Positions 8,924 through 55,816 of a stretch of 64,000 nt of DNA are shown one piece after another. The position numbers were made by a program, and so were the translations under genes. The notes under the pieces are model-generated. The model made no database searches, had not been told where the DNA came from, and saw only the letters and a list, made by a program, of their open reading frames with translations. Every line of letters begins with the position of its first letter. Within the stretch, counting starts at the first letter, position 1. Source of the stretch: Heterodontus francisci (taxonomy: Eukaryota); the NCBI RefSeq assembly GCF_036365525.1, contig NC_090418.1, forward strand, positions 10,850,856-10,914,855, in the 5' to 3' direction.

Positions 8924-11745
8924 TCACAATTGATTGAATGGAGTTTGCTTGTGTTTCCTGTACAGGAACAAGGCTATCAATGAAGCAGAGATCAGACAGA
9001 CAGCTGTCACAGTCAGGGCCACAATCAGGACCACCTCAGACTCCACACCTACAAAGCAATGAGAAACCAATGGTTAGTGAAGGAAACACTGAAGGGAAAA
9101 TGAAAACTAGCAGTCAGTCAACTCACCACCTGGAGACCTCTCCTGCAGCCTTCGCTCAACCTCATTCAGGGACCCAGTTGCCAGGTCAGTCACCTCAGTA
9201 TCCAGAATGACCAGGGGTCCAAGTGAGGCCTCACCCTCCCACTTCAATCCAGCTTCACTCTCTGCAATATCAAACATGCCAGTTAGAGGGGGTAAAGGGA
9301 GATCTCCCACATCTAGAGGATCAATGTCTTACCAGCTTCAGGTACAAGATCCCTCCTTCCTCTGGAAGGAAATCGGAACTCCCTTGTGGCACCACAGTTA
9401 CCCACATGGCAACAGGCACAAATGTCATTGTTGGATTCCTCCAATGGGGTCCAGCTAGACAAGAGAAACAGTTGATCAACCAGGTTGTCCATCACCTTTC
9501 ATACATGCGTGTGAAGAAAAACAAACTTACACATTCTGCATCTTTTGGAAAGTACAAGCTTTGTTCATGGAATCTCTCCGATCCACTGCAGCAACTTTTA
9601 GGTGACAGGTGATGAAAATCTGTGGGATAAATTTCAACACAAATTATTTAGTGACTCCCTCCCAACATGAAAAACCCAATGAATGAACCATATTCCTCTT
9701 ACCAAGGAACGTTCATCTCCAAAGAAGCGGAAAGCATCCAGGTCAAACCGCAGCTTGTCCAGCTCACGCTCGTCTCTTGGCAACACGAAGGTTGAGAAGG
9801 AGCCCTCAGCTTTGCTGTCCAGGAGGCAACTGGAGAAAGATTCAAAAAGGGACATGAAGTGAATAAAGTGAAGCCATTGAGATGGGAGCAGCTGGAGAAA
9901 GCAGAGAGCTCCTTACCCATTGTAGTCAATGATGCTGTATCTCGGGGTGGAATCCTTGTCTGGGCTCAATGTAGCTACACAGCGGTCAATGTAGAGCTTC
10001 AGGGGCATGTGGTTGGTCATTGAAACAGAGGCCTCAATGTGAATGAGGTCACCCAGGTAGTAGACAGTCGAGGTGCGCTCTGTAAGCCAGTCATCTGAAG
10101 TACAAGAGGACAAGGGTTGGAGACAGTGGGTACAACTCCCAGTGGGTGAGTACAGGAAATCACTTCCCATCCACCCATCACATACCATTCATTAGGCGCA
10201 GTGAGAATGACAGATGCCCTTCTCCAGACTTGGTGGAGCTGAATGGGATCCAGGTGGGCTTGATGGGGTTACTGCTCACATTGCCCTTCCTGGAAGGAGA
10301 GGAGAGATATTTTAGGACAACATGATAAAAACCAGCTCTAGATCATATCCACAGTCAAGTAAATATTCTCACCTAAAATAATGACACTCAATGGGAATGA
10401 CAGCTCCATTTGTTCTCACAATGACAGATCCATGATACTGGGGGGTGTGGTTCAGGTGGGTGGTGTAGACCAGGAAATCTCCAACCATCTGAAAGACAGA
10501 CATCAGGAAAGAAGAGAATGTTTGGCTAATGAGTTTAGAGGAATGAGGGAGGTTCTCAAACTGAGTTTGCTGGGTAAATACCAAGAGGCTATTCCTTTGA
10601 CTAGAACAAGGTCAGCTAATCATGCCATCGAATTTTTTGGACTTTCCAATCTCACTGGAAGTTGTGCTCAGTTGAGTACATTCAAAATAGAATAGTTCTT
10701 GGGCTAAAGTAAATCAAGCAACATGGGGACTGAGTGGGAAAGTGGAGTTAGTGTAGAATTTCAGCCACAATCTTATTAACTGAGGTCAGTCTCCAAGGCT
10801 CTACACACTGTGCTGTAGATTGTCCCACAGTTGGCCATTACCACCACAGATGTTAATGTGAGGAGAACAGGCAAGCATGAAGGACTGACCAAAAGCAAAG
10901 TGAATCAATGAAAGGACAGCTTCACTTAACAGCTAAAGGAAACACAAACTGGCAGTAATTTGGAAGTATTAACAGAAGGTTTGCCTTCATTTAATCCAAG
11001 CATTCTAATCACCAGGAGGCTCCCTTCAAATCATATTTAATTCTACAGTTTATTCACAAAAAGTCAGTTAGATTGAATTCAATATTCAGATTTTAACATT
11101 CATTCAATCTAAAAAAAACCCACAAGACAAAGCATACAGTAGGAAAAGCTTGGAAAAACCAAGTGAAGGATAAGACCAATGGGGTTGATAGTCAACACTG
11201 GATTAACCAGGTGACCTGATAAAACAAAGGACAATTGAATCAGGTTTAATGTTTACAAAACAAGCATCTCTTTATCAAGTATTAAAATGAAAAAAGAGGG
11301 GAACAATCTACATCAAGTTTATAACACAAGTTAAAGACATTACCTGCAATCTGCTGCCACACTCATGGAGCCCATAGTCAAAGAGGACAGTGTGGTTCTG
11401 AGAGTAGATCCTGGTCGGCCGACAACCTGCTGTCCCCAGGGTCAGGTCAGCAGCTTTAATCAGGTGCCTGGTTCCAAATAAATCCATCTGGACCCTGACC
11501 AGCAGGTTCTGCTCTCCACACTGCACCGTCACAGTCTGCAGTGGAGACACACTTCGACCCTCAGACACACGGAAATGGGAACCAAAGGGAGACCCAGTTG
11601 GAGGGACTCTCTGAGGCACAGGGGTGGCTTTTACTATTGTCCATGGAAACCTCTGGTCTCGAAACTGTTGCCAAGTATCAGAACAACAGACAACTCCAAC
11701 TAACACCAGCACTGGGAACAAACCCCTCATTACAAAATCCCCCAT
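8924..11745 (-). CDS. ZP3: Zona pellucida sperm-binding protein 3-like, copy 1 (9 exons, ~465 aa, intact)
   Basis: Exons 11745-11344, 10488-10373, 10289-10186, 10094-9917, 9829-9703, 9619-9531, 9454-9333, 9261-9127, 9048-8924; all GT-AG and in phase. Signal peptide, ZP-N Cys1-4, [15 protein letters not shown] Cys5-8, ICACC..NC subdomain, furin RGRR, EHP (ASLGPLVIL), TM helix, ending [10 protein letters not shown]. Confidence 0.93.
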
Positions 11746-11769
11746 GATACCAAACAACTCAACCATCCC

Positions 11770-12825: not shown

Positions 12826-15800
12826 AGGGGGAGTTTAGGGAGTCAGGTAGAAAGTTAAAAGACAGGACCTCGAGGGTTGTAATCTCAGGATTACTCCCTG
12901 TGCCACGTGCCAGTGAGGCTCCAAATAGGAAGATAGTGCAGCTAAACATGTGGCTGAACAGCTGGTGTAGAAGGGAGGGTTTCAGATATCTGGACCATTG
13001 GGACCTCTTCAGGGTACAAGAAGGACGGGTTGCATCTAAACTGGAGGGGCACGAATATCCTGGCTGCGAGGTTTGCTGGCGTTACTCGGGAGGGTTTAAA
13101 CTAGTGTGGCAGGGGGTTGGGAACCAGAGCAGTAGGACAGCAGGTGAAATAAATGAGGGGGAACTAGTAAATAAGGCCAGTAGGACTAAGAGGAAGAGCA
13201 GGCAGGGAGATGTTGCTGAGCACAGCGGGACAGGTGGTCTGAAGTGCATTTGTTTCAATGCGAGAAGTATACAGGTAAGGCAGATGAACTTAGAGCTTGG
13301 ATAGTACTTGGAACTATGATGTTGTTGCTATTACAGAGACTTGGTTGAGGGAAGGACAGGATTGGCAGCTAAATGTTCCAGGATTTAGAAGCTTCAGGCG
13401 GGATAGAGGGGGATGTAAAAGGGGTGGGAGAATATCACAGCTGTACTGCGAGAGGACACCTCGGAGGGGTCATGCAGCGAGGCAATATGGGTGGAGCTCA
13501 GGAATAGGAAGGGTGCAGTCACGATGTTGGGGGTTTACTACAGGCCTCCCAACAGCCAGTGGGAAGTAGAGAAGCAGATATGTAGACAGATTTTGGAAAG
13601 ATGTAAAGGTAACAGGGTTGTAGTGGTGGGTGATTTGAACTTCCCCTATATTGACTGGGACTCACTTAGTGCTAGGGGCTTGGATGGGGCAGAATTTGTA
13701 AGGAGCATCCAGGAGGCCTTCTTGAAACAATATGTAGATAGTCCAACTAGGGATGGGGCCATTCTGGACCTGGTATTGGGGAATGAGCCCGGCCAGGTGG
13801 TCGAAGTTTCAGTGGGGAAAATTTCGGGAACAGTGATCATAATTCCGTAAGTTTTAAGGTACTTGTGGATAAGGATAAGAGTAGTCCTCGGGTGAAGGTG
13901 CTAAATTGGGGGAAGGCTAATTATAACAATATTAGGCAGGAACTGAAGAATTTAGATTGGGGACGGCTGTTTAAGGGTAAATCAACATCTGACATGTGGG
14001 AGTCTTTTCAACGCCAATTGATTAGAATCCAGGACCAGCATGTTCCTGTGAGAAAGAAGGATAAGTTTGGCAAGTTTCGGGAACCTTGGATAACGCGGGA
14101 TATTGTGAGCCTAGTCAAAAAGAAAAAGGAAGCATTCGTAAGGGTTGGAAGGCTGGGAACAGACGAAGCCTTTGAGGAATATAAAGACAGTAAGAAGGAA
14201 CTTAAGCAAGGAGTTAGGAGGGCTAAAAGGGGTCATGAAAAGTCATTAGCAAACAGAATTAAGGAGAATCCCAAGGCTTTTTATATGTTTCTAAAGAGCA
14301 AGAGGGTAACGAGGGAAAGGGTTGGCCCACTCAAGGACAGAGGAGGGAATCTATGTGTGGAGCCAGAGGAAATGGGCGAGGTACTAAATGAGTACTTTGC
14401 ATCAGTATTCACCAAAGAGAAGGACTTGGTGGATGATGAGTCTGGGGAAGGGAGTGTAGATAGTCTGGGTCATGTCATTATCAAAAAGGAGGAGGTGTTG
14501 GGCGTCTTGCAAAGCATTAAGGTAGATAGGTCCCCAGAGCCTGATGGGATCTACCCCAGAATACTGAGGGAGGCAAGGGAAGAAATTGCTGGGTCCTTGA
14601 CAGAAATCTTGGTATCCTCACTGGCTACAGGTGAGGTCCCAGAGGACTGGAGAATAGCCAATGTTGTTCCTTTGCTTAAGAAGGGTAGCAAGGATAATCC
14701 AGGAAATTATAGGCCGGTGAGCCTTACATCAGTGGTAGGGAAATTATTAGAGAGGATTCTTCAGGACAGGATTTACTCCCATTTGGAAACAAATGAACAT
14801 ATTAGCGAGAGGCAGCATGGTTTTGTGAAGGGGAGGTCGTGTCTCACTAATTTGATTGAGTTTTTTGAGGAAGTGACAAAGATGATTGATGAAGGAAGGG
14901 CAGTGGATGTTGTCTATATGGACTTCACTACAGCCTTTGACAAGGTCCCTCATGGCAGACTGGTACAAAAGGTGAAGTCACACGGGATAAGAGGTGAGCT
15001 GGCAAGATGGATACAGAACTGGCTCAGTCATAGAAGACAGAGGGTAGCAGTGGAAGGGTGTTTTTCTGAATGGAGGGCAGTGACCAGTGGTGTTCCGCAG
15101 GGATCAGTGCTGGGACCTTTGCTGTTTGTAGTATATATAAATGATTTGGAGGAAAATGTAGCTGGTCTGATTAGTAAGTTTGCAGACGACACAAAGGTTG
15201 GTGGAGTTGCGGATAATGATGAGGATTGTCAGAGGATACAGCAGGATATAGATCAGTTGGAGACTTGGGCGGAGAAATGGCAGATGGAGTTTAATCCGGA
15301 CAAATGTGAGGTAATGTATTTTGGAAGATCTAATGCAGGTGGGAAGTATACAGTAAATGGCAGAACCCTTAGGAGTATTGACAGGCAGAGAGATCTGGGC
15401 GTACAGGTCCACAGGTCACTGAAAGTGGCAACGCAGGTGGATAAGGTAGTCAAGAAGGCATACGGCATGCTTGCCTTCATCGGTCGGGGCATAGAGTATA
15501 AAAATTAGCAAGTCATGCTGCAGCTGTACAGGACTTTAGTTAGGCCACACTTAGAATATTACGTGCAATTCTGGTCACCACACTACCAGAAGGACGTGGA
15601 GGCTTTAGAGAGGGTACAGAGGAGGTTTACCAGGATGTTGCCTGGTCTGGAGGGCATTAGCTATGAGGAGAGGTTGGATAAACTCGGATTGTTTTCACTG
15701 GAACGACGGAGGTGGAGGGTGACATGATAGAGGTTTATAAAGTTATGAGTGGCATGGACAGAGTGGATAGTCAGAAGCTTTTTCCCCAGGGTGGAAGAGT

Positions 15801-16062
15801 CAGTTACGAGGGGACATAGGTTTTAGGTGCGAGGGGCAAAGTTTACACAGAGGGTGGTGAGTGCCTGGAACTTGGTGCCGGGGGAGGTGGTGGAAGCAGG
15901 TACGATAGCGACATTTAAGAGGCATCTTGACAAATACATGAATAGGAAGGGAATAGAGGGATACGGTCCCCGGAAGTGCAGAAGGTTTCAGTTTAGACAG
16001 GCAGGCTTGGAGGGCCGAATGGCCTGTTCCTGTGCTGTACTGTTCTTTGTTCTTTGTTCTTC
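12826..16062 (+). mobile_element. CR1 LINE, 5'-truncated in ORF1 (esterase-like), ORF2 disrupted
   Basis: ORF1 end (SRVVISGLLPVPRASE..WCRREGFRYLDHW); APE (VVAITETWL, GVYYRPP, GDLNFP); RT 13865-15508 (VPQGSVLGP, KFADDTK); ttctttg tandem tail; absent from the duplicate at ~39717. Confidence 0.93.
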
Positions 16063-16068
16063 TGTACT

Positions 16069-19000
16069 TCTCGAGAGACAATGGGTAAGCGCCTGGAGGT
16101 GGTCAGTGGTTTGTGAAGCAGTGCCTGGAGTGGCTCTCAAGGCCAATTCTAGAGTGACAGACTCTTCCACAGGTGCTGCAGATAAAATTGGTTGTCGGGG
16201 CTGTTACACAGTTGGCTCTCTCCTTGCGCTTCTGTCTTTTTTCCTGCCAACTCTAAGTCTCTTCGACTCGCCACGCTTTAGCCCCGCCTTTATGGTTGCC
16301 CGCTAGCTCTGGCGATCGCTGGCAACTGACTCCCACGACTTGTGATCAATGTCACAGGACTTCATGTCGTGTTTGCAGACGTCTTTAAAGCAGAGACATG
16401 GACGGCCGGTGGGTCTGATACCAGTGATGAGCTCGCTGTACAATGTGTCCTTGGGGATCCTGCCATCTTCCATGCGGCTCACATGGCCAAGCCATCTCAA
16501 GCGCCGCTGGCTCAGTAGGGTGTATATGCTGGGGATGTTGGCCGCCTCGAGGACTTCTGTGTTGGAGATACGGTCCTGCCACCTGATGCCAAAGATTCTC
16601 CGGAGGCAGTGAAGATGGAATGAATTGAGACGTCGCTCTTGGCTGACATACGTTGTCCAGGCCTCACTGCCATAGAGCAAGGTACTGAGGACACAGGCTT
16701 GATACACTCGGACTTTTGTGTTCCGTGTCAGTGCGCCATTTTCCCACACTTTCTCGGCCAGTCTGGACATAGCAGTGGAAGCCTTTCCCATGCGCTTGTT
16801 GATTTCTGCATCGAGAGACAGGTTACTGGTGATAGTTGAGCCTAGGTAGGTGAACTGTTGAACCACTTCCAGAGCGTGGTCGCCGATATTGATGGATGGA
16901 GCCTTTCTGACATCCTGTCCCATAATGTTCGTTTTCTTGAGGCTGATGGTTAGGCCAAATTCGGTGCAGGCAGCCGCAAACCTGTCGATGAGTTTCTGCA
17001 GACACTCTTCAATGTGAGATGTTAATGCAGCATCGTCAGCAAAGAGGAGTTCCCTGATGAGGACTTTCCGTACTTTGGTCTTCGCTTTTAGACGGGCAAG
17101 GTTGAACAACCTGCCACCTGATCTTGTGTGGAGGAAAATTCCTTCTTCTGAAGACTTGAACGCATGTGAGAGCAGCAGGGAGAAGAAGATCCCAAACAGT
17201 GTAGGTGCGAGAACACAGCCCTATTTCACAACACTCAGGATAGGAAAGGGGTCTGATGAGGCGCCGCTATGCTGAATTGTGCCTTTCATATTGTCATGGA
17301 ATGAGGTGATGATACTTAGTAGCTTTGGTGGACATCCGATCTTTTCTAGTAGTCTGAAGAGACCACGTCTGCTGACGAGGTCAAAGGCTTTGGTGAGATC
17401 AATGAAAGCCATGTAGAGGGGCATCTGTTGTTCGCGGCATTTCTCCTGTAGCTGTCGAAGGGAGAACAGCATGTCAATGGTGGATCTCTCTGCTTGAAAG
17501 CCACACTGTGCCTCAGGGTAGACACACTCAGCCAGCTTCTGGAGCCTGTTTTAAGCGACTCGAGCGAAGACTTTCCCCACTATGCTGAGCAGGGAGATTC
17601 CACGGTAGTTGTTGCAGTTCTTCAATGTGAGATTGAAACCAGTCTGCATTCCACTTCACACGTTTGCCATAGGTGGTCATTGTTGAGTCGTAGATGGCGT
17701 CTCTGATGTGGGCCCACTTGGTCTCTGCATCCCCTGTGGGAGTGTTTTGAAGGGCTTTTTCAAGTGAATTTCGAAACTTATGTAACAGCTGTGGATGAGA
17801 AATTCTGCTAGTGTTGATGCACAGGCGGCCCTTCTGCTTGGTGTAATGCAGTTTCTTTGGTTTGAGGCTAACCTTGCTGCACACGAGGGAGTGGTCAGTG
17901 TTGCAGTCCGCACTGTGGAAGCTGCGTGTGATTTGAACACTGTTTAAGGAGGCTCACCTTGTGACGATGAGGTCCAGCTGGTGCCAACGGCGTGATCTTG
18001 GGTGCCTCCAAGAAACCTGGTTGACAGGGTTTAGTGTGAAAGAACAAGTTGGTGATGCAGAGGTTATGATAGGTACACAACTCAAGCAGTCTCTGTCCAT
18101 TCTCATTCATCCTTCCAATGCCATAGCGCCCAAGGCAGGAGGGCCATGAGTCATGGTCGGCCCCAACCCTGGCATTAAAGTCCCCCAGCAGGAATAGGTG
18201 TTCGGTATTGGGGATGCTACTAATGATATTATGGAGTTCCTCGTCTTTAGCTTCAGGTGGAGAGCAGAGTGTTGGAGCAGAGATGCTGAGTAGGTGTACT
18301 GGACCAGAGGCGGTGAGCAGTCGGATGGACAGTATGCGTTCCGAGCCATTTGAAGGTGGCTCTATCATGCTGAGCAAAGAGTTTCTGATGGCGAAGCCCA
18401 CTCCATGCTGTCTTGGTTCTTCAGGATCCCTGCCCTGCCAGAAGAAGGCGTAGTCTTGCTCTCTTAGAGATCCGCTCACAGGGAGGCGAGTCTCCTGAAG
18501 TGCTGCAATGTCCACATTGAGTCTACTGAGCTCGTTGTTAATGATGGTGGTCTTCCGAGAATCATTGATTTGTGCAAGGTCTTCCGACAGGCCAGGACAC
18601 ATAGTTCTGACGTTCCAGCTTGCAAAACAAAGGGCTGGCACCTTCTTTCCTTTTTTTGCCGTACTGTTTGGTGTGGTGTTTACAGTCCACTCGTCGGGCA
18701 ATGACCCTGAGCTCCAAGCACCCAAAGAAGCAGGTGGACTGTGGCGGGACAGAACCTTACTGACCGGGGGCTGCCCGGTTTGAGGCGGGCGGTACCTGTC
18801 CAGTGAGATGCGATGACCTCTCCCACCGACAAAGGAAACCCATGGCTCCCAATCTCTACGCCAATTGAGCTGGACTTATAACCCGTAAATGCTGCCTTCC
18901 GTGTTGTTTTGGTCGCTGTGAGGTGACTATGGAGTGACCTCTCCATGGTGCATGCCTGGGCGGATGTATGGGATTTGTGACTTGCCCAAGCGTCAAAACC

Positions 19001-19377
19001 CCCCTCTCGGCCTTCCTGGTGGGGTCCAAAGGAGTGCAGAGCACGACGTTTGGCACCGGTATGGCTGCAGGAACTGCCGGAAACATGCCAAAGGTGACAC
19101 ATGACCACCTTCGGGATTCCCCTCCGGATCTTCTGTTAGGGTTTACTCCCTTAGCCTTGATCTCTCCGTGGAAGCCCACAAGGCAGTTTTTAGGGTCCCT
19201 GCTCAGGGGTAGGTGGATGCCGGTGGGAGGGGTGCAGTGGGAAGGGGTGGAGGGAAGGGGGTGCGAGGGGGAGCTGAGAAGGCAGTTTCAGGGGTAAGGA
19301 GAGGGGGTGCAGGGAATAAAACATTTCATCGGCTCCCACCATTGGGAATTCTGCTCCCAGTACATGATGCTATTTGA
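16069..19377 (-). mobile_element. RTE LINE, inverted duplicate of 1951-6009 with internal deletion
   Basis: Same 5' flank and same in-frame TAG (17221-17223 vs 4853-4855); ~630 bp missing at ~17618; 3' tail absent. Confidence 0.92.
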
Positions 19378-21060
19378 TAATCTCACTCCTGATATTATTG
19401 GCAAAGCCTCTGTAACCAAAAGAGTGATCGAGATGGTCAGACAAAACCAACTAATTGTATTCACACTGAAGATCATCATCACAAATTGACTCTATTCAGA
19501 TCTGAAGAACATAAACCTTCACAAGACAAGTGTTGGGCACAACCCAGAATGTTTCTTCAAAGTATATCCTGCGGGGAGGGGGGGGGATATAAAAGTTTCT
19601 GACTTGATGTGAGTGCAGGTGCATTGATGAATAAACCGTTGCTGTTCTGTGTAATGGTTTTCCAGGGTGGCAGGGCTGAACTGGTGTAACAGTGTCAGCA
19701 GAGAATAGGGAAATGGACCCAAAAAGGAGCTCTCCGATTCCACTCAAGCTGTGCTGGACCTCGCTTGGAGATGTTTGATTCTGTCCTGGGAAACAAAGAG
19801 CAAATACATATTAGTGATAAATGTGTTGGAGGAGTCATTAAAACAAGTCCACTCAGAGTGAGAGTTTACTGAAACTTATTAGTATAAATTTTATTCACAT
19901 TGAGGTGAAGGACCACAGTGCTGGAGAATGGGATATGTTCCATGAAACTGGAGTGTCAGAATGAACCACTCCCAGGACAGGTACAGCACGGGGTTAGATA
20001 CAGAGTAAAGCTCCCTCTACACTGTCCACATCAAACACTCCCAGGACAGGTACAGCACGGGGTTAGATACAGAGTAAAGCTCCCTCTGCACTGTCCCCCA
20101 TCAAACACGCCCCAGGATAGGTACAGCACGGGGGTTAGAGACAGAGTAAAGCTCCCTCTGCACTGTCCCCATCATAAATGTCTCCTTACTGCAGCAGTGA
20201 ATGGTCCTGTATCTCAGAGCAGCCAGCTTCATGCTTTCTCTGCGTTCGCTTGTCGATTAGTATATCCTACTAAAGAGGAGTTTTATGCTGTGGATCTGTT
20301 GCAGTGAGATTTTCCCAAACTCACTTTACATTGTACCACAACAGCCAACACGGGGGAGAGTTTTATTCCATTATTCTGGAGCTGCACTCAGACCCAGGGT
20401 GACAGGATGGCCCTTGAACCATTTCACCGTCATTTCATGAAGAACCAGGTTCTGGGAGATTCTAGACGATGCTAAAAAAAAAAAAACGGGGTTAGATACA
20501 GAGTAAAGCTCCCTCTACACTGTCCACATCAAACACTCCCAGGACAGGTACAGCACGGGGTTAGATACAGAGTAAAGCTTCCTCAAAAACAAAGAAAAAT
20601 ACTAGTTAGATATCGACTGTAAATGCTACATTGTGTGAAGCTTCGGTGATCTGTGGGAAATCTGGGGCATATCCAATTGGAATGATCAAGTTGCATCCCG
20701 TATATTACTCTTTCAGGGAACTGTTCCTGAACTTTGGCTCAGCTCCAGGCCCAGGCTCCTGATTTTCGGCCTTTCGGTACAGAGAGGGGTTAGACAAACT
20801 GGCAGAACGTCTCGTGACTCTGCTCTGGCGGTGCAAAAGCAGCGATCCACATTCTCAGGGACAGCTGGGGTTGGGAAGGGGTTGGTGTCGCTCGGGCTCG
20901 TTGGCTCTCCTTTGCGGTCCTGGCTGTGCTTTGGTGTCCCATAGAGAGGGGCAATGCGGTGCCCACCCATACACTCGAGGCCTCCTGCCACCAGTGAACT
21001 CCTCAGGGAATGGAGAGTCTAATTGACACTCGTCATACTTATATAATTTAATTTGATGAG
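19378..21060 (+). mobile_element. Ancient Tx1/L1-clade LINE relic with minisatellite insertions (~19968-20175, ~20473-20585)
   Basis: Most complete copy of the relic; fragments such as KEEFY..L and LFLNF..LLIFGLSVQRG; lies upstream of ZP3 copy 2. Confidence 0.5.
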
Positions 21061-21104
21061 TTTCTTTTGTTCAATGTACATTCTGTGTTTGAGTTCCATT
21101 ATTT

Positions 21105-23240
21105 GTTAGAAATCAAAGAATTCTTAAGGCACAGAAAGAGGTCACTTGGCCCATCGCGTCTATGCCAGCCAGAAAACGATCCACCCATTCCAATCCCACC
21201 TTCCAGCATTTGCTCCGTAGCCCTGCAGCTTACGGCACTTGAGGTGCCTATCCAGACTCCTTTTGAATGAGTTGAGGGTCTCTGCCTCAATTACCCTTTC
21301 AGGCAGTGAGTTCCAGACACCCACCACTCTCTGGGTAAAAAAGATTTTCCTCATCTCCCCTCTAATTTTTCTCCCAATCACTTTAAATCTATGCTGCTTT
21401 GTCACTGACCTCTCTGCTAAGGTGAATCGGCCCTTCAACCCAGCCCCCCATTCTACCCAGGCCCCTCACAATTTTCTACATTTCAATCAGATCTCCCCTC
21501 AGACTTCTCTGTCCCAGGGAGATCAACCCCAGCCTATCCAATCTTTCCTCATAGCTGCATTTTTCCAGTCCTGGCATCATCCTCGTAAATCTCCTCTGTA
21601 CCTTCTCTAGTGCAATTTCATCCTTTCTGTAATGAGGTGACCAGAACTGCTCACTACAAAAGCAGCGATCCACATTCTCAGGGACAGCTCGGGTTGGGAA
21701 GGGGTTGGTGTCGCTCGAGCTCGTTGCCTCTCCTTTGCTGTCCTGGCTGTGCTTTGGTGTCCCATAGAGAGGGGCATTGCAGTGCCCACTTGTACAGTTG
21801 AGGCCTCCTGCCACCAGTGAACTCCTCAGGGAATGGAGAGTCTCACTGACACTAGTAATACTGATATACCATCACAGTACTCATGTTGTGGCCTAATCAA
21901 TGAGTTATACAGTTCCAGCATAACCTCCCTGCTCTTATATTCTATACATCGGCTAATAAAGGAAAGGATTCCATATGCCTTTTTCATCACCTTATCGACC
22001 TGTCCTGCTACATTCAGGGATCTGTGGACATTCACTCAAAGGTCCCACATTTCCTCTACACTCCTCAGTATTTTCCCACTATTCGTGTGTTCCTTTGACT
22101 TGTTTGACCTCCTCAAATGCATCACCTCACACTTCTCCAAGTTGAATTCCATTTGCCGCTTTTCTGCCCATCTGACCAGACCATCAATATCTTCCTGCAG
22201 CCTAAGCTATCCTCCTCGCTATCTAACACATGGCCAATCTTTGTGTCATCTGCAAACTTCTTCATCATGCCCCCTCGAGGCCTGCTACCCGACCCGAAAC
22301 CGACGGGACCCGGCGACACGTGTCGGATTCTGGTCCGGGTCCATCTTCAAGTCAAGTCCGGGTTGGGTCGTGTCGGGCTGGACACACACGGTAAGTGCTC
22401 TGCCCATCAGTATTGAAATTAAAAAAACTTACCTGAGCTGAGAGTCCGGGACAAAGCTGAGTCTGCGTAGTGAGCGAGTGATGTCACAATGACGTCATCG
22501 CGCATGCGCTGCAGCTTCGCGGAGATTCCAAGTCTGAAGGTGAGTAAAAGGATAGTCGGGTCGAGTCGAGTCAGGGTGGGTTTGGGTCGGGTCGGGTCGG
22601 GCTCGGGGCAAAATCGGAGGGACTTTGGCCAGGTCGGGCTCGAGTCCGCGGTGGTTCGGTCAGGTTCGGGTCGGGTTCTTTTCTCCCAACCTCAGCAGGC
22701 CTCTAATACCCCCTACATTTACGTCCAAATCGTTAATATATGCCACAAAAAACAGGGGACCCAGTACTGAGCCCTGCAGAACGCCACAACCCTCCAGTCG
22801 CAAAAATACCTGTCAACAATTAACCTTTGTTTCCTGCCACTGAGCCAATTTTGGATCTATCTTGTTATGTTTCGCTCGATCCCAGGGGATTTTATTTTTG
22901 TAACCAGTCTGCCATATGGGACCTTGTCAAAAACCTTGCTAAAATCCATGTAGACCACATCAACTGCACGACCCTCATCTATCTTCCTTGTTGCTTCTTC
23001 ATAAAATTCAAGTAATCTATGCTGACTATCCTTGATTATTCTGTGCCTTTCTAAGTGACAGTTTATCTTGTCTCTCTAAATAGATTCCAATAGTTTTCCC
23101 ACTACTGAGGTTAGACTGACTGGCCTGTAATTATTCAGTCTGTCCCTCGCTCCCTTTTTAAACAGAGGTACAGTGTAAGAAATTCTCCCATTCTCCGGCA
23201 CCACACCTGTATCCAGTGAGCACTGGAAAATGTTAGCTGT
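21105..23240 (-). mobile_element. CR1 LINE 3' portion, interrupted by a Tx1-relic patch (~21655-21872) and a MITE
   Basis: [62 protein letters not shown]. Confidence 0.85.
22275..22705. mobile_element. hAT-superfamily MITE (~431 bp)
   Basis: TIRs tcgaggcctgct / agcaggcctcta; 8-bp TSD atgccccc (22267-22274) / ataccccc (22706-22713); subterminal (tcggg)n repeats; splits a CR1. Confidence 0.82.
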
Positions 23241-29720: not shown

Positions 29721-30235
29721 ATAGAATCAGGGAAGATACAGATACAAGTTCAGGGTAAGGGACAAGTGCAGGGATAGATGGTATATCAGTATTACTAGTG
29801 TCAGCGAGACTCTCCATTCCCTGAGGAGTTCACTGGTGGCAGGAGGCCTCGAGTGTACGAGTGGGCACCGCATTGTCCCTCTCAATGGGACACCAAAGCA
29901 CAGCCAGGACCGCAAAGGAGAGGCAACGAGCCCGAGCGACACCACATTCCCAACCCTAGCTGTCCCTGCCCATCCTGAGAATGTGGATCGCTGCTTTTGC
30001 ATGGCCCAGAGCAGAGTCACGAGACGTTCTGCTGGTTTGTCTGATCCCGCTCTGTACCGAAAGGCCGAAAATCAGGAGCCTGGGCCTGGAGCTGAGCCAA
30101 AGTTGAGGAACAGTTCCCTTAAAGAGTAATATACGGGATGCAACTTGATCATTCCAATTGGATATGCCCCAGATTTCCCACAGATCACCGAAGCTTCACA
30201 CAGTGTAGTATTTACAGTCCATATCTAACCTATGT

Positions 30236-31003: not shown

Positions 31004-31024
31004 CCTGTATTTGTCTTTGTTTTT

Positions 31025-34101: not shown

Positions 34102-35794
34102 TATGTTACTGCAGTCCTGATACTAGGCCTCTGAAGCCTTCTCCCATTGAAGGCATTTGAACACCTACCCATCAGGCAGTTTTTCAACCTCACCTGCAAA
34201 GACTTGAGTGGCATCTAACTATTTGAGTTTGGGAGTCCTTACCAAACCAAAGAACCTCCTTCCAGATCATGACAGTTGAACTTCTTAAATTCCTTTCATA
34301 TGAAACAAAAATCCTGGTTCACTGCTCTTTGAATGTATGTGCATGAGGATGAGGGAAATAGAGCTTTCACTTCTCAGATTTACTTGATTAGTAAAGACTT
34401 GGTTTCAGAATAAAATGCTTATTTGTTAAAGAAACCTGGTCGGTGTGCCATTTTCTGGGGCCGAAGAGTATCTAATTGTCTTGCACTAAGTGGGAAATTT
34501 GTTATGTTATGACCGGTGGAACTGGATTTATAGTTCACTCTTCCCCCGTGGGTCATAGTACAACTGACCCAGGTGGCATTGCCTTCCATTGAGGCCTAAA
34601 CACCCACTAGTGCCTGGAGACTCCATTAAAGGAGGTCACCTTGTGCTCAGTCCAAAACCAGGCAAGAACAGAGGATTCAAGGAGAGAGCAGGAAATGGTA
34701 TCTTCAGGGGAAGGGGAAACAAAACAAGTCACCAATTATCAGCTCCATCTCTTCCTCTCTCCAGCAGAGAACTGCAACCAGTTTGCAGTAAAGTTTAGGC
34801 CCTACTCTCCACCCAAGGGAAGATGCAGCCAAACACTGAATTGTATTAGGGCTCTGCATAGTACCAGCTACCACTAGTCATCAGTAACATTGCAGGGTTA
34901 ATAAGGCAATATAGAATCTACAGCAGTATGAAAAAGCAAAGGGTCTCAGTAAGAAATGCTTCAAGTATGCTGTCTGACTCCACACTGCCAACTGAGATAC
35001 TAAACCCAATGGATCAGTTATAATCCTACTACAAGTAGTCCTGGAAGATGAACTGAAGATCACTGCCAGCTATAACTAGGGTCATTTGTGGTTCAGATTG
35101 CTGTCAAATCCAGCCTGTAATGGGAACAGGTTTATTTCCAGACTGAGTACAGCTGTAAGCATGATTTAGACATGTCATTCCACTAGAATGAGTTACATTT
35201 ACTGCCCTATTCTCATTAGGATAGCAGCAGGGCATTTGTACACATGAGGGAAAGCAGAGTGCAGTGGACTGGCTTCCTGGTTACGACGTTGCATTAAAGC
35301 AACCTATTACATCAACTCCAACTTGTACAATTCCAAAGCCCCAACATTCATGGCAGATCCGAGTGAAAATTACTTGTCTACTTAAGGTCAACCTCAGTCT
35401 TCAGAGGTTAGACAGAGCTCCTCAAACTAGGAATCTTTTAACCCCAATTTTTCACTTTTGGTCAACTAGTCTATGGAATGTGAAAACCTGTCATCACTAG
35501 CCATATAAAGCCAATGGAATAGCTTGGAGGAACCAGTTTGCCCTAATTCAGTGAATCAGCATTCACCTAAAAAAGGTCAGTGAGTTGTACTGTGAATGTT
35601 GCACAGTTGCCATAGATACATTCATCCCAGTCCTGATGTAAGGCATTGACAGTAATTTTGATACTAGTTACAGGGACCAACAGGGAACAGAGGGGGGCTG
35701 CTGAGAGATACTTATTTAAAAACCCAGTCTGCAGCCACAAAAGATAAAGTGACAAATGAGCTCTTGCACACAAGATACTGCTTTATTGATCATT

Positions 35795-38613: not shown

Positions 38614-38879
38614 GATACCAAACAACTCAACCATCCCTTCACCCACCAACCAGCTCCTTTTATACACACAACCTGCAGTCACCTGACACCAATGATCCCA
38701 GAAGCAGCAACATTGAACCAATTAACCAGCTCCAATCTCCACAATTTACACCCAATGACAGAACCCATGGATTTATTGGCAGGAGGCTCTTCCACACAGG
38801 GGTTTATTAAAGAATTCGCCCTGATCCAATGGGATTGTTGTTCTTGGTGATTGGCTGTGGGAAGTGCTTCACACTCAGA

Positions 38880-39560
38880 ATGTGGTTCCAAGGGACACTG
38901 CACGGATCAGGTGGAGTGGAAATGTCATCGGTCTCCATATAGTTGAAGCAAATTGATCCATCGCTGAACTGGGAAATTTCCTTCTTTCTTCCTGCTGCAC
39001 AGGACGCAGAGAGGGTTTCCTGTGTAGGCCTCTTATACACACTTTCAGACTTCCTCCCCCTTGTCTCCCCTCCCAACACAATCTGCTGTTCTGTCTTGCT
39101 ACCCTGCGGATACTGGTAGCCCCAGAAGAGGGCTCTTTCTGTGGGACCCGTCCCCTTGCACCATTGGGAATCTGGTGTGAACATTACAGGAGTGGTTGTG
39201 TGCAACGGGCTTTCAAACATCCTCACAGACTCCCAGGCTGCCTGGGAGAAGTCTGTGGTTCGTGTTTATTCTGAGTGTGAGATTGCTACTCCTGCACTGT
39301 CTCAATTTTTCGCTGCATTTCAGTCCCAGGTTCCTGAGCCTTGGCCACCCTGTGAGGAGGAGAGAAGTGGATATGTCAGAGGATCCCCTTGTGGCGTTGC
39401 TCCTGGGCCTGGCCAAGGGGGCCATTAACAGGTCCGTCCAGCGCCCGGTCAAGTGGACCCGTCCCCCAGAGAGCTGCCCTCTTCCACGGTTACGGCCATG
39501 CCCGAGTGCCCCTGGAGAGGCATGTCGGTACCCCTGAGGCCTTCCGCGACTGCTGGCACT
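38880..39560 (+). mobile_element. Tx1-clade LINE ORF2 3' fragment
   Basis: Duplicate of 12000-12670 (LHFSPRFLSLGHPVRR..LLLGLAKGAINRS). Confidence 0.7.
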
Positions 39561-40319
39561 TATAACTTGGCAGGTTTCTTGGGTGAAGTGGAGACGATGA
39601 ATAATTTCAAAAGGAAATTGGATGGGCACTTTCAGAGCTATCGGGATAGCCCAGGGAATGGGACTGGGTTGCTCTACAGAGAGCCAGCATGCACCCTATG
39701 GGCTGAATGGCCCCCTTCTGTGCCATTATGACTCTTAAAAGTACTTCAACAATGAGTACCAGATTATAAAGGGGTACATGTGATTTCAGTGATTCTGATT
39801 GGTGATATCATCCTCTAAAAATTAGTAAAAAGCAGTAGCAGTTGCAACCCCTGAAAAGGGGGGCTCCTTAACATTTAGCTACATTTTAACCCCACTCTGC
39901 TAATCTTTCGATGCCTGGATGAGAGGGGTGGGGGTTTGCAAGTTGAAGGATCTTCTTGTCTGCCCTAAAACAGCAATTTGTAGATCCAGGACTGGTGGGC
40001 CCCATGGGGGCTAGGCGGGAGAGGGGAGGGAGTCTCCCTGCCTGCCTCTGTTCTGCAGTTTTACCTGTGCTTGGATGTCCCTGGAGAGGGGGAATGCCTC
40101 CAATGACTGGTGGGCACTGCAAGGTGTGGAGTGTCTTGCAGACATCAAGAATAACATTCTGATTAAGGTGAGAGGAAATCCTTATGATTTTGCTCAAATG
40201 TGATGCTTATTTTGGCAAATTTTCAGTCTGATTGAACCATCTCATATTTGTGCCCGGTGAGGTATACTTGTTGTGATGACCATAGAGTAACCATATAACC
40301 AAGAAAATGCCCATTCAGA

Positions 40320-48205: not shown

Positions 48206-48835
48206 TTAACCAGTGATCGAGATGGTCAGAAAAGCCAACTAATTGCATTCACACCAACGATTATCTTTCTCTTCGCAAAGTGGCTGCATCCGAGCGGAAG
48301 ATAACAAACCTTCAGAAGACAACAGTTGGGCAAAACCCAAAAAGTTTCCTCAAATTGTAGAGTGGTGATGGGGAGGGGGGTACTTGGGGGAGTGGGAGCT
48401 GGGACAGTGGTGGGGGCAGGATAAACATTTCCGACTTGCTGACTTAATGTGCGTGCAAGAGCATCGATAAATAAAATCAATCGTGTCTGTGTAATGGTTT
48501 TCTAGGGTGCACAGCTGAACTGGTGTAACACCGTCGGCAGAGAAAGGGACGTGGACCCAGAAAGAAGGAGCTCTTGGATTCTTTCCCCCCGCACCCCACC
48601 TCCCAAGCAGTGCTGGACCTCACTTGGAGATGTGTGGTTCTCTCCTCGGAAATATGGGGCAATTCCCAAATACATATTAGTGATAAATATCTTGCATTAT
48701 TCATTAAAACATGTCCACTCAGAGCGAGAGTTTATTCATCCTTCTTAATATAAATTTTATTCTTGTCGGCGTGAGGGACCTCAGTGTTGGAGAATGGCAC
48801 ACATTCCAATTGGAGCTGGAGTGTCAAAATGAACC

Positions 48836-49355
48836 ACTCCCAGGACAGGTACAGCACGGGGTTAGATACAGAGTAAAACTCCCTCTACACTGTCCCCCAT
48901 CAAACACTCCCCAGGACGGGTACAGCGCGGGGGGTTAGATACAGAGTAAAGCTCCCTCTACACTGTTCCACATGAAACACTCCCAGGACAGGTACAGTAC
49001 GGGGGGTTAGATACAGAGTAAAGCTCCCTCTACACTGTCCCCCATCAAACACTCCCAGGACAGGTACAGTACGGGGGGTTAGATACAGAGTAAAGCTCCC
49101 TCTACACTGTCCCACATCAAACACTCCCAGAACAGGTACAGCACGGGGTTAGATACAGAGTAAAGTTCCCTCTACACTGTCCCCATCAAACACTCCCACA
49201 ACAGGTACAGCACGGGGTTAGATACAGAGTAAAGCTCTCTCTACACTGTCCCCGTCAAACACTAAAAAAAAAACGGGGTTAGATACAGAGTAAAGCTCCC
49301 TCTACATTGTCCCCATCAAACACTCCCAAGACAGATACAGCACAGGTTTGACAGA
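48836..49355. repeat. ~68-bp minisatellite array
   Basis: About seven units of cactcccaggacaggtacagcacggggttagatacagagtaaagctccctctacactgtccccatcaaa. Confidence 0.9.
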
Positions 49356-49363
49356 GAGTGTAA

Positions 49364-52182
49364 TTTTTTTTATATTCATTCATGGGATGTGTGTGTCGCT
49401 GGCCAGGCCAGCATTTACTGCCCATTCCTAATTGCCCTTGAGAAGGTGGTGGTGAGCTGCCTTCTTGAACCGCTGCAGTCCATGTGAGGTAGGTACACCC
49501 ACAGTGCTGTTAGGAAGGGAGTTCCAGGATTTTGACCCAACAACAGTGAAGGAACGGCGATATAGTTCCAAGTCAGGATGGTGTGTGGCTTGGAGGGGAA
49601 CTTGCAGATGCTGGTGTTCCCATCCATATGCTGCCCTTGTCCTTCTCGGTGGTAGAGGTCACGAGTTTGGAAGGTGCTAGTGAAAGAGCCTTAGCAAGTT
49701 GCTGCATCTTGTAGATGGTACACACTGCTGTCACTGTCTATCAGTGATGGAGGAATTGCATGTTTATGGTGAGGGATTGGGTGCTGATCAAATGGGCTGC
49801 TTTGTCCTGGATGGTGTTGAGTGTTGTTTCAAATGCACTCATCCAGGCAAGTGGAGAGTATTCCATCACACTCCTGACTTATGTCTTGTAGGTGATGGAC
49901 AGGGTTTGCGGAGTCAGGAGGTGAGCTACTTGCCGCAGAATTCCCAGCCTCTGACCGTCTTTGGTTTCCACAGTATTTATGTGGCTGGTCCAGTTCAGTT
50001 TCTGGTCAATGGCGAGCCCCAGGATGTTGATTGTGGGGGATTCAGCAATGGCAATGCCATTGAACATCGAGGGGAGATGGTTAGATTCTCTCTTGTTGAG
50101 ATGATCATTGTCTGGCACTTGTGTGGCATGGATATTACTTGCCACTTAGCAGCCTAAGCCTGAATGTTGTCCAGTTCTTTCTCCAAGTGGGCACGGACTC
50201 TTTCAGTATCAGAGAAGTTATGAATGGGACTGAACACTAAACAATCATCAGCAAACACCCTTACTTCTGACCTTATGTTGGAGGGTAGGTCATTGATGAA
50301 GCAGCTGAAGATGGTTGGGCCTAGGACACTACCCTGAGGAACACCTGCAGTGATGTCCTGGGGCTGAGACGATTGGCCTCCAATAAACACAACCATCTTC
50401 CTTTCTGCCTGGTGTGACTTTAACCAGTGGAAATTTTTCTTCCTGATTCCCATTGACTTCCATTTTGCTAGGGCCCCTTGATGCCACATACAAATGCTGC
50501 CTTGATGTCAAGGGCAGTTATTCTCACCTCACCTCTGGAATTCAGCTCTTTTGTCCATCTCTGGACCAAGGCTTCATTGAGGTCTGGAACTGAATGGCCC
50601 TAACTCAGCATCGGTGTGTATGTTGCTGCTGAGTAAGTGCCGCTTAATAGCACTGTCGATGACACCTTCTATCGCTTTGCTGATGGTTGAGAGCAGACCG
50701 ATGGGGTGGTAATTGGCCGGATTGGATTTGTCCTGCTTTTTGTGAACAGGACATACCTGGACAATTTTCTGCAGTGTCAGGGCCGAATGGCCTACTCCTG
50801 CTCCTATTTCTTCTGGTCTCATGATCTATAATGCACTGCCTGAGAGTGAGGTGGAGACAAATTCAATCATGGCTTTCAAAAGGGATTGGATAATTATCTA
50901 AATAGAACAAAACTGCAGGGCTACAGCTAACAGGTGGGAGAGTGGACTTGCTGAGTGCTCTTGCAGAGAGCTGGCATTGAGACGATGGGCCAAATGGCCT
51001 CCTTCTGTGCTGTAACCATTCTATGGGTAGGCTCCTGTGTTGTAGCTGTACTGGAAGAGCTTGGCTAAGGGTTGTGGCTAGTTCTGGAGCACAAATCTTC
51101 AGCACTGCAGCTGGGATGTTGTCAGGGCCCATAGCTTTTGCTGTATCCAGTGCCTTCAGCCATTTCTCGAGATCACGCGGAGGGAATCGATTTTTCTGAA
51201 GACTGGCATCTGTGACATCAGGAGGAGGCCGAGATGGATCCTCCACTCTGCATTGCTGGCTGAAGATGGTTGCAAATGCTTTAGACTTTTCTTTTGCATT
51301 GGTGTGCTGGGCTCCGCCATCATTGAGGATGGAGATGTTTTTGGAGCCTTCTCCTCCTCTTAGTTGTTTAATTCTCCACCACCATTCACGATTGGATGTG
51401 GCAAGGCTGCAGAGCTTAGATCTGATCCGTTGGTTGCGGGATTGCTTCGCTCACTCTGTAGCATGCTGCTTCTGCTGTTTAGCATGTACGTAGCCCTGTG
51501 TTGTAGCTTGACCAGGTTGGCACCTCATTTTTAGGTATGTCTGGTGCTGCTCCAACCATCCTAGTTGGTCCCCCAACTAGATGGTAATGTTAGAGTGGGG
51601 GATATGCCGGCCCATGAGTTTACAGATTGTGGTTGAATAAAATTCTGCTGCTGATGATGGTCCACAGTATCTCATGGATGCCCAGTTTTGAGGTGCAAGG
51701 TCTGTTCTAAATCTATCCCATTTAGCACTGTGGTACTTCCACACAACACGATGGAGGGTATCCTCAGTGTGAAGACAGGACTTCATCTCCACAAGGACTG
51801 TGCGGTGGTCACTCCTACCAATACAATCATGGACAGATGCATCTGCAATAGATAGATTGGTGAGGACAAGGTCAAGTAGGTTTTTCCCTCTTATTGCTTC
51901 TCACCACCTGCTGCGGGCTTAATCTGGCAGATATGTCCTTCAGGACTCGGCCAGCTTGCTCAGTAGTGATGTTACTGAGCCACTCTTGGTGATGGACAGT
52001 GATGTCTCTCGCCCTGAGTATATTCAGTGCTTTTTCCAAGTGGTGTCCAACATGGAGGAGTAGTGATTCATCAGCTGAGGGGAGGGCAGTAGGTGGTAAT
52101 AAGCAGGACATTTCCTTGCCCATGTTTGGCCTGATGCCATGGACACTTCATGGGGTTTGGTGTCAATGCTGAGGACACCCAA
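49364..52182 (-). mobile_element. CR1/L2-group LINE (APE-RT, degenerate) with nested CR1 tail at ~50775-51025
   Basis: AGVPQGSVLGPTIFSCFINDLPS..VFADDC, KAMGPDNIPA, NPANYHPIGLLS; same family as 30236-31003 and 59600-60450. Confidence 0.85.
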
Positions 52183-52935: not shown

Positions 52936-52956
52936 ATGGTTGAGTTGTTGGGTATC

Positions 52957-55816
52957 ATGGGGGATTTTGTAATGAGGGGATTGTTCCCAGTGCTGGTGTT
53001 AGTTGGAGTTGTCTGTTGCTCTGATACTTGGCAACAGTTTCGAGACCAGAGGTTTCCATGGAGAAGAGTAAAAGCCACCCCTGTGCCTCAGAGAGTCCCT
53101 CCAACTGGGCCTCCCTTTGGTTCCCATTTCCGTGTGTCTGAGGGTCGAAGTGTGTCTCCACTGCAGACTGTGACGGTGCAGTGTGGAGAGCAGAACCTGC
53201 TGGTCAGGGTCCAGATGGATTTATTTGGAACCAGGCACCTGATTAAAGCTGCTGACCTGACCCTGGGGACAGCAGGTTGTCTGCCGACCAGGATCTACTC
53301 TCAGAACCACACTGTCCTCTTTGACTATGGGCTCCATGAGTGTGGCAGCAGATTGCAGGTAATGTTGACTCTTGTTCTAAGCTTGGTGGGGAACAATCTA
53401 CCCACCCTTTCCAACACTTGGTGAAATGTTATTGATGGAGAGGTGATGTCTGTCTCCTGCTTTTTAAATCCTTAATCTTAATTTCAACTGTGCAGTGTAC
53501 CTTTGCTTTTTCTGGTATCTTTTCTCTACCAACTTTATTCAAGATGAATGGGGTTGTTTCTACTTGCTATCTCAATGTTTTTCTTTTGTATATGTCTTGT
53601 GGATTTTGTTATTGCCCCTCATCTGGTTTATTCAACTTTTGTTAGCATATTCAATTCTAATAGCTGTGTTAAAGATGGGAAATGGAATAAGATTTGAGTT
53701 AGTGCATGAAAGGGACACTCTACATTTCCTAATTTCCCTGTCAAAATACAGATGCTTGGATTAAATTATATGAAACTGATTTGTTCATTGTATCAATTGA
53801 TTTTGACTTAAAATAAAACTGTTCTTTCATCTGAGTCACTCTTAATTTTTGTTTGTAATCTCTTTACTTAAACTGTAAAGACTGTAAGCAGATTGGGGGG
53901 AGTTGGTGCTAGGCCCCTGGAGCACGCTTGGCCATTCAATAACATCTGAGCTAATTTTTTGACATTAACTATGCTTTTCCACCCAATCTCCATGTCCCTT
54001 GATTCCTTTTGCCCCAAAACCTGCCTGTCTTTAATACATACAACAGTTGAGCATAAAATTCCACAGGGTTGGAAAGATGCCAGAAGTTTTCAACCTGCTG
54101 AAGAAATTTCTTTGACCCCTTGCCTGACATTGACTTAGTCTTGACACTCCAACTAGGGAAAATGGAACCCCCAGCATCTACCCTGACATTCCCTGTAGGA
54201 CTTATTTCCTTTCACTGAGCAGAATGATCTTCAATTCCTTTCCCTGATGTCTTTCAGATGGCTGGAGATTTCCTGGTCTACACTACCCACCTGAACCACA
54301 CCCCCCAGTATCATGGATCTGTCATTGTGAGAACGAATGGAGCTGTCATTCCCATTGAGTGTCATTATTTTAGGTAAGTTGAGTGAATTTAGTTTTCAAT
54401 CTAATTCAAGTTCTGATGTTATCCTAGCATAACTCTCCTATCCTTCCAGGAAGGGCAATGTGAGCAGTAATCCCATCAAGCCCACCTGGATCCCATTCAG
54501 CTCCACCAAGTCTGGAGAAGGGCATCTGTCATTCTCACTGCGCCTAATGAATGGTATGTGATGGGTGGATGGGGAGTGATTTCCTGTACTCACCCACTGG
54601 GAGTTGTACCCACTGTCTCTAACCCTTGTCCTCTTGTACTTCAGATGACTGGCTTACAGAGCGCACCTCGACTGTCTACTACCTGGGTGACCTCATTCAC
54701 ATTGAGGCCTCTGTTTTAACGACCAACCACATGCCCCTGAAGCTCTACGTTGACCGCTGTGTAGCTACATTGAGCCCAGACAAGGATTCCACCCCGAGAT
54801 ACAGCATCATTGACTACAATGGGTAAGGAGCTCTCTGCTTTCTCCAGCTGCTCCCATCTCAGTGGCTTCACTTGATTCACTTCATGTCCCTTTTTTGAAT
54901 CTTTCTCCAGTTGCCTCCTGGACAGCAAAGCTGAGGACTCCTTTTCAACCTTCGTGTTGCCTAGAGACGAGCGTGAGCTGGACAAGCTCCGGTTTGACCT
55001 GGATGCTTTCCGCTTCTTTGGAGATGACCTTTCCTTGGTAAGAGGAAGCTGATCATTGGGGTCTCTACATTGGGAGGGAGTCACTAAATTAATGACTTGT
55101 GTTGAATTTATCTGTCAGATTTTCATCACCTGTCACCTGAAAGTTGCTCCAGTGGATCGGAGAGATTCCATGAACAAAGCTTGTACTTTCCAGAAGATGC
55201 AGAATGTGTAAGTTCCCACACTAGAATTTTCTAGTGAGGAGAAAAGATGATTCACAACCTGGTTGATCAGCTGTTTCTCTCTCGTTTAGTTGGACCCCAT
55301 TGGAGCAATCCAACAATGACATTTGTGCCTGTTGCCATGTGGGTAACTGTGGTGCCACAAGGGAGTTCTGATTTTCTTCCAGAGGCAGGAGGGATCTCTT
55401 ACCTGAAGCTGGTAGGACATTGATCCTCTAGATGTGGGAGATCTCCCTTTATCCCCACTAACTGGCATGTTTGATATTGCAGGGAGTGAAGCTGGATTGA
55501 AGTGGGAGGGTGAGGCCTCACTTGGACCCCTGGTCATTCTAGATACTGAGGTGACTGACCTGGCAATGGAGTCCCTGAATGAGGTTGATCGAAGGCTGCA
55601 GGAGAGGTCTCCAGGTGGTGAGTTGGCTGACTGCTAGTTTCCATTTTCCCCCTCAGTGTTTCCTTCACTAACCATTGGTTTCTCATTGCTTTTGTAGGTG
55701 TGGAGTCTGAGGTGGTCCTGATTGTGGCCCTGACTGTGACAGCTGTCTGTCTGATCTCTGCTTCATTGATCGCCTTGTTTCTGTACAGGAAACACAAGCA
55801 AACTCTGATCAACTAG
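52957..55816 (+). pseudogene. ZP3: ZP3-like, copy 5, with premature TGA in exon 7 (truncated isoform or young pseudogene)
   Basis: Exons 52957-53358, 54258-54373, 54450-54553, 54645-54822, 54911-55037, 55119-55207, 55290-55411, 55483-55617, 55698-55816; CGA>TGA at 55369-55371; splice sites and frame otherwise intact. Confidence 0.85.

Follow-up and report, generated by a model that had tools for sequence, protein, structure and literature searches.

A 64,000-nt stretch of the horn shark genome (Heterodontus francisci; assembly GCF_036365525.1, contig NC_090418.1), in the following called the window and the basis of all coordinates, harbors five genes for the egg-coat protein ZP3. Their coding sequences are nearly identical, while much of the surrounding non-coding DNA is not, and we consider it very likely that the array is old and that its copies are homogenized by gene conversion. 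In a broader reading, which we regard as probable, segmental duplication is still ongoing in this old array, and the copies are likely retained for dosage.

Probable gene conversion between old ZP3 copies

The first copy (C1) has nine exons, each of which matches the window at exactly five places, and the coordinate-spliced models yield five nine-exon genes in the orientations -, +, -, +, + between positions 8924 and 55816. These are C1 (8924..11745, minus strand, spliced from 11745 to 8924; 465 amino acids), C2 (23621..26530, plus strand; 463), C3 (35795..38613, minus strand, spliced from 38613 to 35795; 465), C4 (40549..44352, plus strand; 463) and C5 (52957..55816, plus strand). GT-AG borders are found in 40 of 40 introns, and the frames of C1 to C4 are intact (463-465 amino acids), which reproduces the coordinates and frames of an initial annotation of the window with five ZP3-like genes, four of them intact.

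On the coding level, the copies are 97-98% identical, with 24-39 of 1378 sites differing between pairs and 71 variable coding sites overall, and their proteins differ at 12-22 of 459 residues, with the protein of exon 3 invariant. For the introns, leaving aside the C1/C3 pair, mean identity over the remaining nine pairs is 96-99% in introns 3, 4, 7 and 8, 70-73% in introns 2, 5 and 6, which are of similar length (five pairs for intron 5), and 55% in intron 1 (range 53-61%). Counted over ungapped columns, intron 1 differs at a fraction of 0.39-0.47 in these nine pairs, compared with 0.55-0.59 in five shuffles and 0.044 in C1/C3, and short local matches are kept in eight of the nine. Judged from these alignments, intron 1 is homologous but old among the copies. 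The flanks are mostly at shuffle level, with C2/C5 and, just upstream, C1/C3/C4 as partial exceptions; only C1 and C3, the latter a recent duplicate of the former, share both flanks and intron 1 (95% identity). Similarity breaks off sharply at three points, namely at -170, a short way into intron 1 and close to where exon 9 ends.

The near-identity of synonymous sites and of whole introns is not explained by selection on the protein and therefore points to exchange between old copies; likewise, the coexistence of such coding sequences with such first introns calls for gene conversion acting on old duplicates. Individual tracts also tell conflicting histories. Intron 2 of C1 (10290..10372, minus strand) carries a putative conversion footprint, being identical to that of C2 at 71 of 86 positions and to that of its twin C3 at 56 of 93, and intron 2 of C4 (41866..41938, plus strand) equals that of C5 (54374-54449) at 73 of 76 positions, although the first introns of C4 and C5 are only 55% identical. 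Adjacent informative sites share an identical split at a fraction of 0.45, compared with 0.24 after shuffling (p=0.00015, 45 sites). These are the features of concerted evolution: duplications that are older than the similarity of the copies implies, and patchy tracts with conflicting genealogies. Homogenization via RNA or cDNA is ruled out, as the homogenized sequence includes introns 3, 4, 7 and 8 and also promoter DNA that lies upstream of the TATA box. Mechanistically, selection would keep exons and promoters alignable, and these could then seed conversion; the tracts would cross those short introns that have remained alike and end where similarity is lost, leaving the parts beyond to drift apart.

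These data bear on the possibility that all copies arose late in the horn shark lineage, by recent birth-and-death duplication alone and without conversion. The high coding identity is compatible with this scenario, as are the genuine recent duplications, the one pseudogene and the species-level clustering described below, and comparable clades of gamma-crystallins are read as recent duplicates in the catshark genome paper (PMC11979771). However, the homologous first introns differ by 39-47% in nine of ten pairs, as opposed to 2-6% at synonymous sites, the flanks are at shuffle level, the C1/C3 pairing is contradicted by intron 2, and the N-terminus shows a trans-species relationship (see below). 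We consider it very unlikely that the copies arose in this way, and the notion of a simply young amplicon is not supported. A second concern is that haplotigs or misjoined reads might have been placed in tandem. The exons are indeed as alike as very divergent alleles might be, but alleles cannot differ by ~45% in intron 1 and be embedded in unrelated flanks. Even C1 and C3 differ by 3-9% in their flanks and by a 4-kb long interspersed nuclear element (LINE), and the same multiplicity is seen in other sharks. Haplotigs are ruled out by the intron 1 divergence, the unrelated flanks and the LINE difference, and we regard an assembly artefact of any kind as extremely improbable.

A promoter block before each copy

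Each ATG is preceded by a 170-bp block with 96-100% identity in all ten pairs (C1, 11746..11915, minus strand; C2, 23451..23620, plus; C3, 38614..38783, minus; C4, 40379..40548, plus; C5, 52787..52956, plus). In all five copies, this block contains a TATAAA at -51 and a CAGGTG at -72 from the ATG, as expected from the proposal that each copy has its own TATA/E-box promoter, and four ATTGG motifs (reverse CCAAT) at the fixed positions -143, -123, -109 and -80, which the initial annotation does not list. In the one promoter tested, mononucleotide shuffles contained 0.5 ATTGG motifs instead of the four observed (p=0.001). A fifth reverse CCAAT is found farther upstream in five of five copies, even where the flanks differ; in its more distant upstream region, C2 resembles only C5 (74% at -400 to -201). 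At the opposite end of the genes, an AATAAA follows 7-13 nt past the stop in all five copies.

C3 and C4 are arranged head to head, with their ATGs 1.9 kb apart; a shared bidirectional promoter is ruled out, as each copy is preceded by its own block. An estrogen-driven liver promoter was likewise rejected, with no perfect estrogen response element within 1.5 kb of any of the five copies; sites with one mismatch occur at C1, C3 and C4, all outside the shared promoter block. Because zp genes came to be expressed in the liver within the teleosts (PMC10140178) and no perfect estrogen response element was found, we infer that the copies are expressed in oocytes.

The intact copies encode a membrane-anchored ZP3

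C4 corresponds to the NCBI H. francisci protein P0002, save for an eight-residue splice-model gap (455 of 463 columns), and C1 is 98.4% identical to P0001 of the same species over 428 columns, with a five-residue splice-model gap and a different tail. Named H. francisci proteins at NCBI are also the top matches of exon 1, and the chondrichthyan source suspected from the sequence is thereby supported. At least six more H. francisci protein clusters have no exact match to any window copy; the eight clusters together comprise 27 member sequences. The array is thus larger than the five copies initially described, with at least six further horn shark models outside the window, while blastn and tblastn revealed no sixth copy or remnant inside it. 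The exon 7/8 junctions of P0001 and P0002 differ from our spliced models, and P0001 is devoid of the transmembrane (TM) exon, though this exon is intact in C1; the NCBI annotation of the array looks unreliable.

The Pfam domains PF23344 (ZP-N) and PF00100 (ZP-C) are detected above cut-off in P0001, P0002 and window exons 1 and 4, and they are the only two Pfam domains in P0001 and P0002, which have neither a trefoil nor an extra ZP-N domain. The alignment to chicken ZP3 (PDB 3NK3) has an E-value of 4e-104, and the cysteines C76, 108, 129, 169, 246, 268, 314, 331, 351, 353, 354 and 359 align with those of 3NK3; eight module cysteines and a four-cysteine cluster after ZP-C are a ZP3 feature. An RGRR furin site lies at residue 370. 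Two hydrophobic peaks, one spanning residues 1-22 and the other 428-453, correspond to the signal peptide and the TM segment, and we take LGPLVIL to be the external hydrophobic patch (EHP). The window copies thus share with vertebrate ZP3, as represented by the chicken protein, the signal peptide, ZP-N and ZP-C, the four extra cysteines after ZP-C, the furin site, the hydrophobic patch, the TM segment and the short tail, in line with the TM-anchored ZP3 predicted initially. They differ from mouse and human ZP3, as described in PMC8391237, in having nine instead of eight exons and in being multi-copy instead of single-copy. A 50-row tree, which includes chicken ZPC and lemur ZP3 and whose rows contain no labelled ZP3.2/3.3 outgroup, approximately follows the species order, and it appears consistent with a placement of the window genes in canonical ZP3 (termed ZP3.1 by Feng et al. 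2018).

Two copies deviate from this scheme. C5 has an in-frame premature TGA at codon 366 in exon 7 (55369..55371, plus strand), 3' of the ZP module and 5' of the furin site, EHP and TM segment. Because secretion requires the C-terminal propeptide (PMC8391237), C5 is probably a non-functional pseudogene, and as the stop precedes the last exon junction by ~175 nt, its transcript might be subject to nonsense-mediated decay. In C4, codon 370 (exon 7, 43826-43947) gives a KGRR instead of an RGRR furin site, which may alter processing and lies outside the furin consensus given in PMC8391237. Intron 5 of C4 (42526..43655, plus strand; 1130 bp) contains a ~1.05-kb insert without another match in the window.

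ZP3 paralogs in other sharks and rays

Among the matches listed in our searches for relatives, two of which covered the best 120 matches each, ZP3 is multi-copy across sharks and rays. At least two protein clusters are found in 18 of 21 elasmobranch species, and at least 98 over 22 chondrichthyan species, although clusters are not gene counts, as model differences can split them and clustering at 90% can merge them. A quick tree was built from 79 of 125 rows, with 30 dropped for coverage or gaps and 16 turtle rows thinned. In this tree, paralogs mostly cluster by species or genus: the species labels need 26 changes, with a minimum of 24 and a shuffled mean of 62.3. A further feature of concerted evolution, paralogs that resemble each other more within a species than between species, is thus seen, with exceptions: the ZP modules are 96-98% identical within the horn shark and 82-90% identical to the main type of other sharks.

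The horn shark protein P0014, which is encoded outside the window, appears to combine two types. Its N-terminus groups with that of the sawshark protein P0018 (support 100/98; 18 rows, 72 columns), and horn shark monophyly of the N-terminus is rejected in an approximately unbiased test (p=0.025). Its ZP module, by contrast, shares 97-98% identity with the window copies but 70% with P0018, and for this module the same test rejects the P0014/P0018 pair (p=0.009, 17 rows). Residues 1-43 match P0018 at 33 and C2 at 27 of 43 positions, whereas residues 64-128 match C4 at 65 and P0018 at 55 of 65 positions. This switch of type lies within the part that corresponds to exon 1; if the exon structure is the same, this speaks against an erroneously joined gene model. 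Horn shark and sawshark represent the two main shark lineages. We tentatively propose, as a possibility short of an even chance, that a multi-gene ZP3 array predates their split and that conversion repeatedly rewrites the coding sequences and promoters of the old copies in a species-specific manner.

Some further observations concern individual sequences. Codons 36-37 in exon 1 of C1 encode TI, in place of RR in the other four copies; this resembles the SI of P0014 and possibly represents a short conversion tract from the P0014 type. P0003, a 461-residue protein with 87% identity to the window ZP3 from a 1415-bp record labelled Salmonella enterica, groups with basking shark rows (Shimodaira-Hasegawa-like approximate likelihood ratio test, 98) and looks contaminated or mislabelled. 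In P0089, a ZP3 model from the white shark, the protein is joined to C2H2 zinc-finger domains, which hints that the array of this species has zinc-finger neighbors.

Segmental duplications and repeats

The nested direct and inverted duplications proposed initially do exist in part of the array, namely for the unit of C1 and C3 and for two inverted arms. The segment 6028..12825 (plus strand), which contains C1, is directly repeated at 32472-39718 with C3, with 91-97% identity in ungapped columns of the non-gene parts. Together with a downstream module at 527-1950, it corresponds to 29777..39718 (plus strand), which includes the matching module. A 4-kb LINE resides in the C1 unit, whereas the C3 unit has an empty site near 32478. 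The inverted duplication comprises a left arm at 1..6024 (plus strand), with the LINE at ~1950-6030, and a right arm at 16050..22399 (minus strand), which contains the same LINE with the same 5' junction and points toward C2; the arms are 94-98% identical. As the start of the window truncates the left arm, a minus-strand mirror copy of C2 may lie just outside, at a predicted distance of ~1.2-4.1 kb from this start. A further LINE with endonuclease and reverse transcriptase domains (12830..16050, plus strand) occupies the site where the C1 unit meets the inverted arm; we presume that the LINEs belong to RTE-like and CR1-like classes. The order of events suggested by these sequences would be direct duplication, followed by LINE insertion and then by inverted duplication. 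An older copy of the downstream module (48212..50127, minus strand; 72-78%) is located downstream of C4, as for C1 and C3. The alternating orientation of the genes, which had been highlighted before, is correct as an order, but it is nothing special: at least three switches among four neighbor pairs have a probability of 5/16 if orientations are random, which is not beyond chance.

The duplicated downstream module contains tandem arrays of a 69-72 bp unit (1009-1367, 19961-20174, 31004-31887 and 48829-49359). A non-coding module with an acceptor-like site occurs four times (1340-1950, with copies near 19370-19990, 31860-32480 and 48200-48830). Old similarities of 70% between 29162-29571 and 57566-57995, downstream of C2 and C5, and between 32570-32851 and 45702-45956, downstream of C3 and C4, are possibly traces of ancient duplication units. 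A decayed hAT DNA transposon lies at 60456-62520, with its C-terminal dimerization domain at 62349-62498 (Pfam PF05699, E=6e-12). A GTCGG-rich element of ~420 bp with short terminal inverted repeats (22276-22705 and 1-124) is situated inside a LINE fragment; one of its ends is 75% similar to the hAT end at 60456-60560, and it is probably a non-autonomous relative. Among 15 intergenic open reading frames searched against Pfam, none points to a host gene besides ZP3 (ten are retroelement-type or weak, five without match), and Rfam and tRNA scans of the window gave no matches.

In such a setting, copy number could be a mere by-product of a repeat-rich, recombination-prone region, in which one or a few copies matter and the rest are passively maintained by conversion. 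LINEs and satellite arrays indeed sit at rearrangement junctions, C5 is broken, several of the models outside the window look malformed, and conversion itself can preserve reading frames. However, the presence of multiple clusters in most of the listed elasmobranch species implies long retention, as does the N-terminal type in common with a distant shark, and we consider a by-product unlikely.

Dosage as a probable reason for many copies

Across all ten pairs, dS values of 0.021-0.064 and dN/dS values of 0.27-0.87 were obtained. It was initially suggested that the amplicon might serve dosage or diversity; in the latter case, copies would be kept as variants that differ in sperm binding or envelope properties. 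The differing residues between the proteins, the dN/dS of 0.87 for C2/C4 and the persistence of a second N-terminal type outside the window are in favor of this. Yet dN/dS is below 1 in every pair and gives no sign of diversifying selection, the protein of exon 3 does not vary, differences are wiped out by conversion, and near-identical promoters argue against split expression. A role in diversity thus appears improbable to us and is not borne out by the window copies.

We lean, by a small margin of confidence, toward dosage for egg-envelope synthesis as the reason for many near-identical copies. From what is known of the family, the intact copies would be transcribed in growing oocytes, and their membrane-anchored precursors would be cut by furin and polymerize into the vitelline envelope. 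In the secreted ZP precursor, paired hydrophobic patches hold the protein inactive until the furin cut, after which it polymerizes (PMC8391237). Dosage appears the likeliest explanation because halving ZP3 in the mouse about halves zona width: the zona of heterozygotes is approximately half as thick (PMC8391237).

Several points weigh against an old, converted array kept for dosage. In teleosts, the relation between ZP copy number and chorion thickness is not significant (rho 0.286, p 0.493; PMC13704971), and one of the five copies is broken. The basis of our analysis is genome sequence from one haplotype, and the intron 1 comparison covers the horn shark copies of the window. The compatibility statistic for conversion is weaker than that of adjacent sites (p=0.035), and intron alignments add noise. 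In the cross-species tree, the 11 rows of the horn shark make up an unresolved grade instead of a supported clade. Homogenization is incomplete in other sharks and rays: Pristis is scattered and needs three changes, and Scyliorhinus and Chiloscyllium/Hemiscyllium (bamboo and epaulette sharks) share lineages across species. Finally, the P0014/P0018 test was post hoc and draws on two gene models, both predicted, over 72 columns; in the tree of the module, P0018 sits on a long branch.

Comparison with known systems

ZP3 arrays and concerted evolution are each of a known kind, and the conversion mosaic is more interesting than the orientation of the genes. Close parallels are described for the ZP3/ZP4 arrays of teleosts (catfish, carp, stickleback and zebrafish), which show the same tandem and segmental amplification, mixed orientations and pseudogenes, and for which dosage has likewise been proposed (PMC13704971). 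The terms 'gene conversion' and 'concerted' are absent from the accessible text of this catfish paper, whereas conversion is the main signal in the horn shark. According to its Table 1, there are eight ZP3 genes in turtle, four in frog and three in chicken; ZP3 expansion, initially taken to be described mainly in teleosts, is thus not confined to this group. The Bombyx mori chorion genes are another multigene family of the eggshell in which gene conversion, concerted evolution and pseudogenes are found (PMC4639761), and they serve as a working analogy only; their proteins are unrelated, and the A and B genes are paired under a common promoter, in contrast to the separate block of each ZP3 copy. 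The gamma-crystallins of the catshark represent another shark tandem array with species-specific clades and an argument from selection for quantity (PMC11979771); there, the clades are read as recent duplications, whereas the non-coding DNA of the horn shark locus indicates that most ZP3 copies are old.

In the literature on shark ZP genes and ZP conversion, from which subscription journals were mostly excluded, we found no description of a shark ZP3 array or of ZP3 gene conversion. The terms 'zona' and 'ZP3' are absent from the main text of a survey of tandem clusters in rays (bioRxiv 2025.06.08.657570), whose figure labels or supplements might list the cluster, and from the accessible text of two shark sex-chromosome preprints, examined with a view to a possible X-chromosomal location of the array. 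The suggestion that the array is undescribed for this lineage thus stands with regard to published accounts, but its genes are already part of the automatic NCBI annotation.

The present findings extend ZP3 amplification to sharks and rays and provide a clean case where protein trees would misdate duplications. The locus also lends itself to testing where conversion tracts end, with short introns either carried along or not, and whether the dosage of egg-coat genes is important in a large-egged, internally fertilizing fish. If the array indeed predates the split between horn shark and sawshark and is repeatedly rewritten by conversion, a new egg-coat variant could spread through the entire array, as a molecular drive of a sperm-facing protein. 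The repeats of abalone VERL are a comparable case, except that repeats are affected there and whole genes here. Likewise, expansions that are read as recent and species-specific in gene trees of sharks could then be badly misdated.

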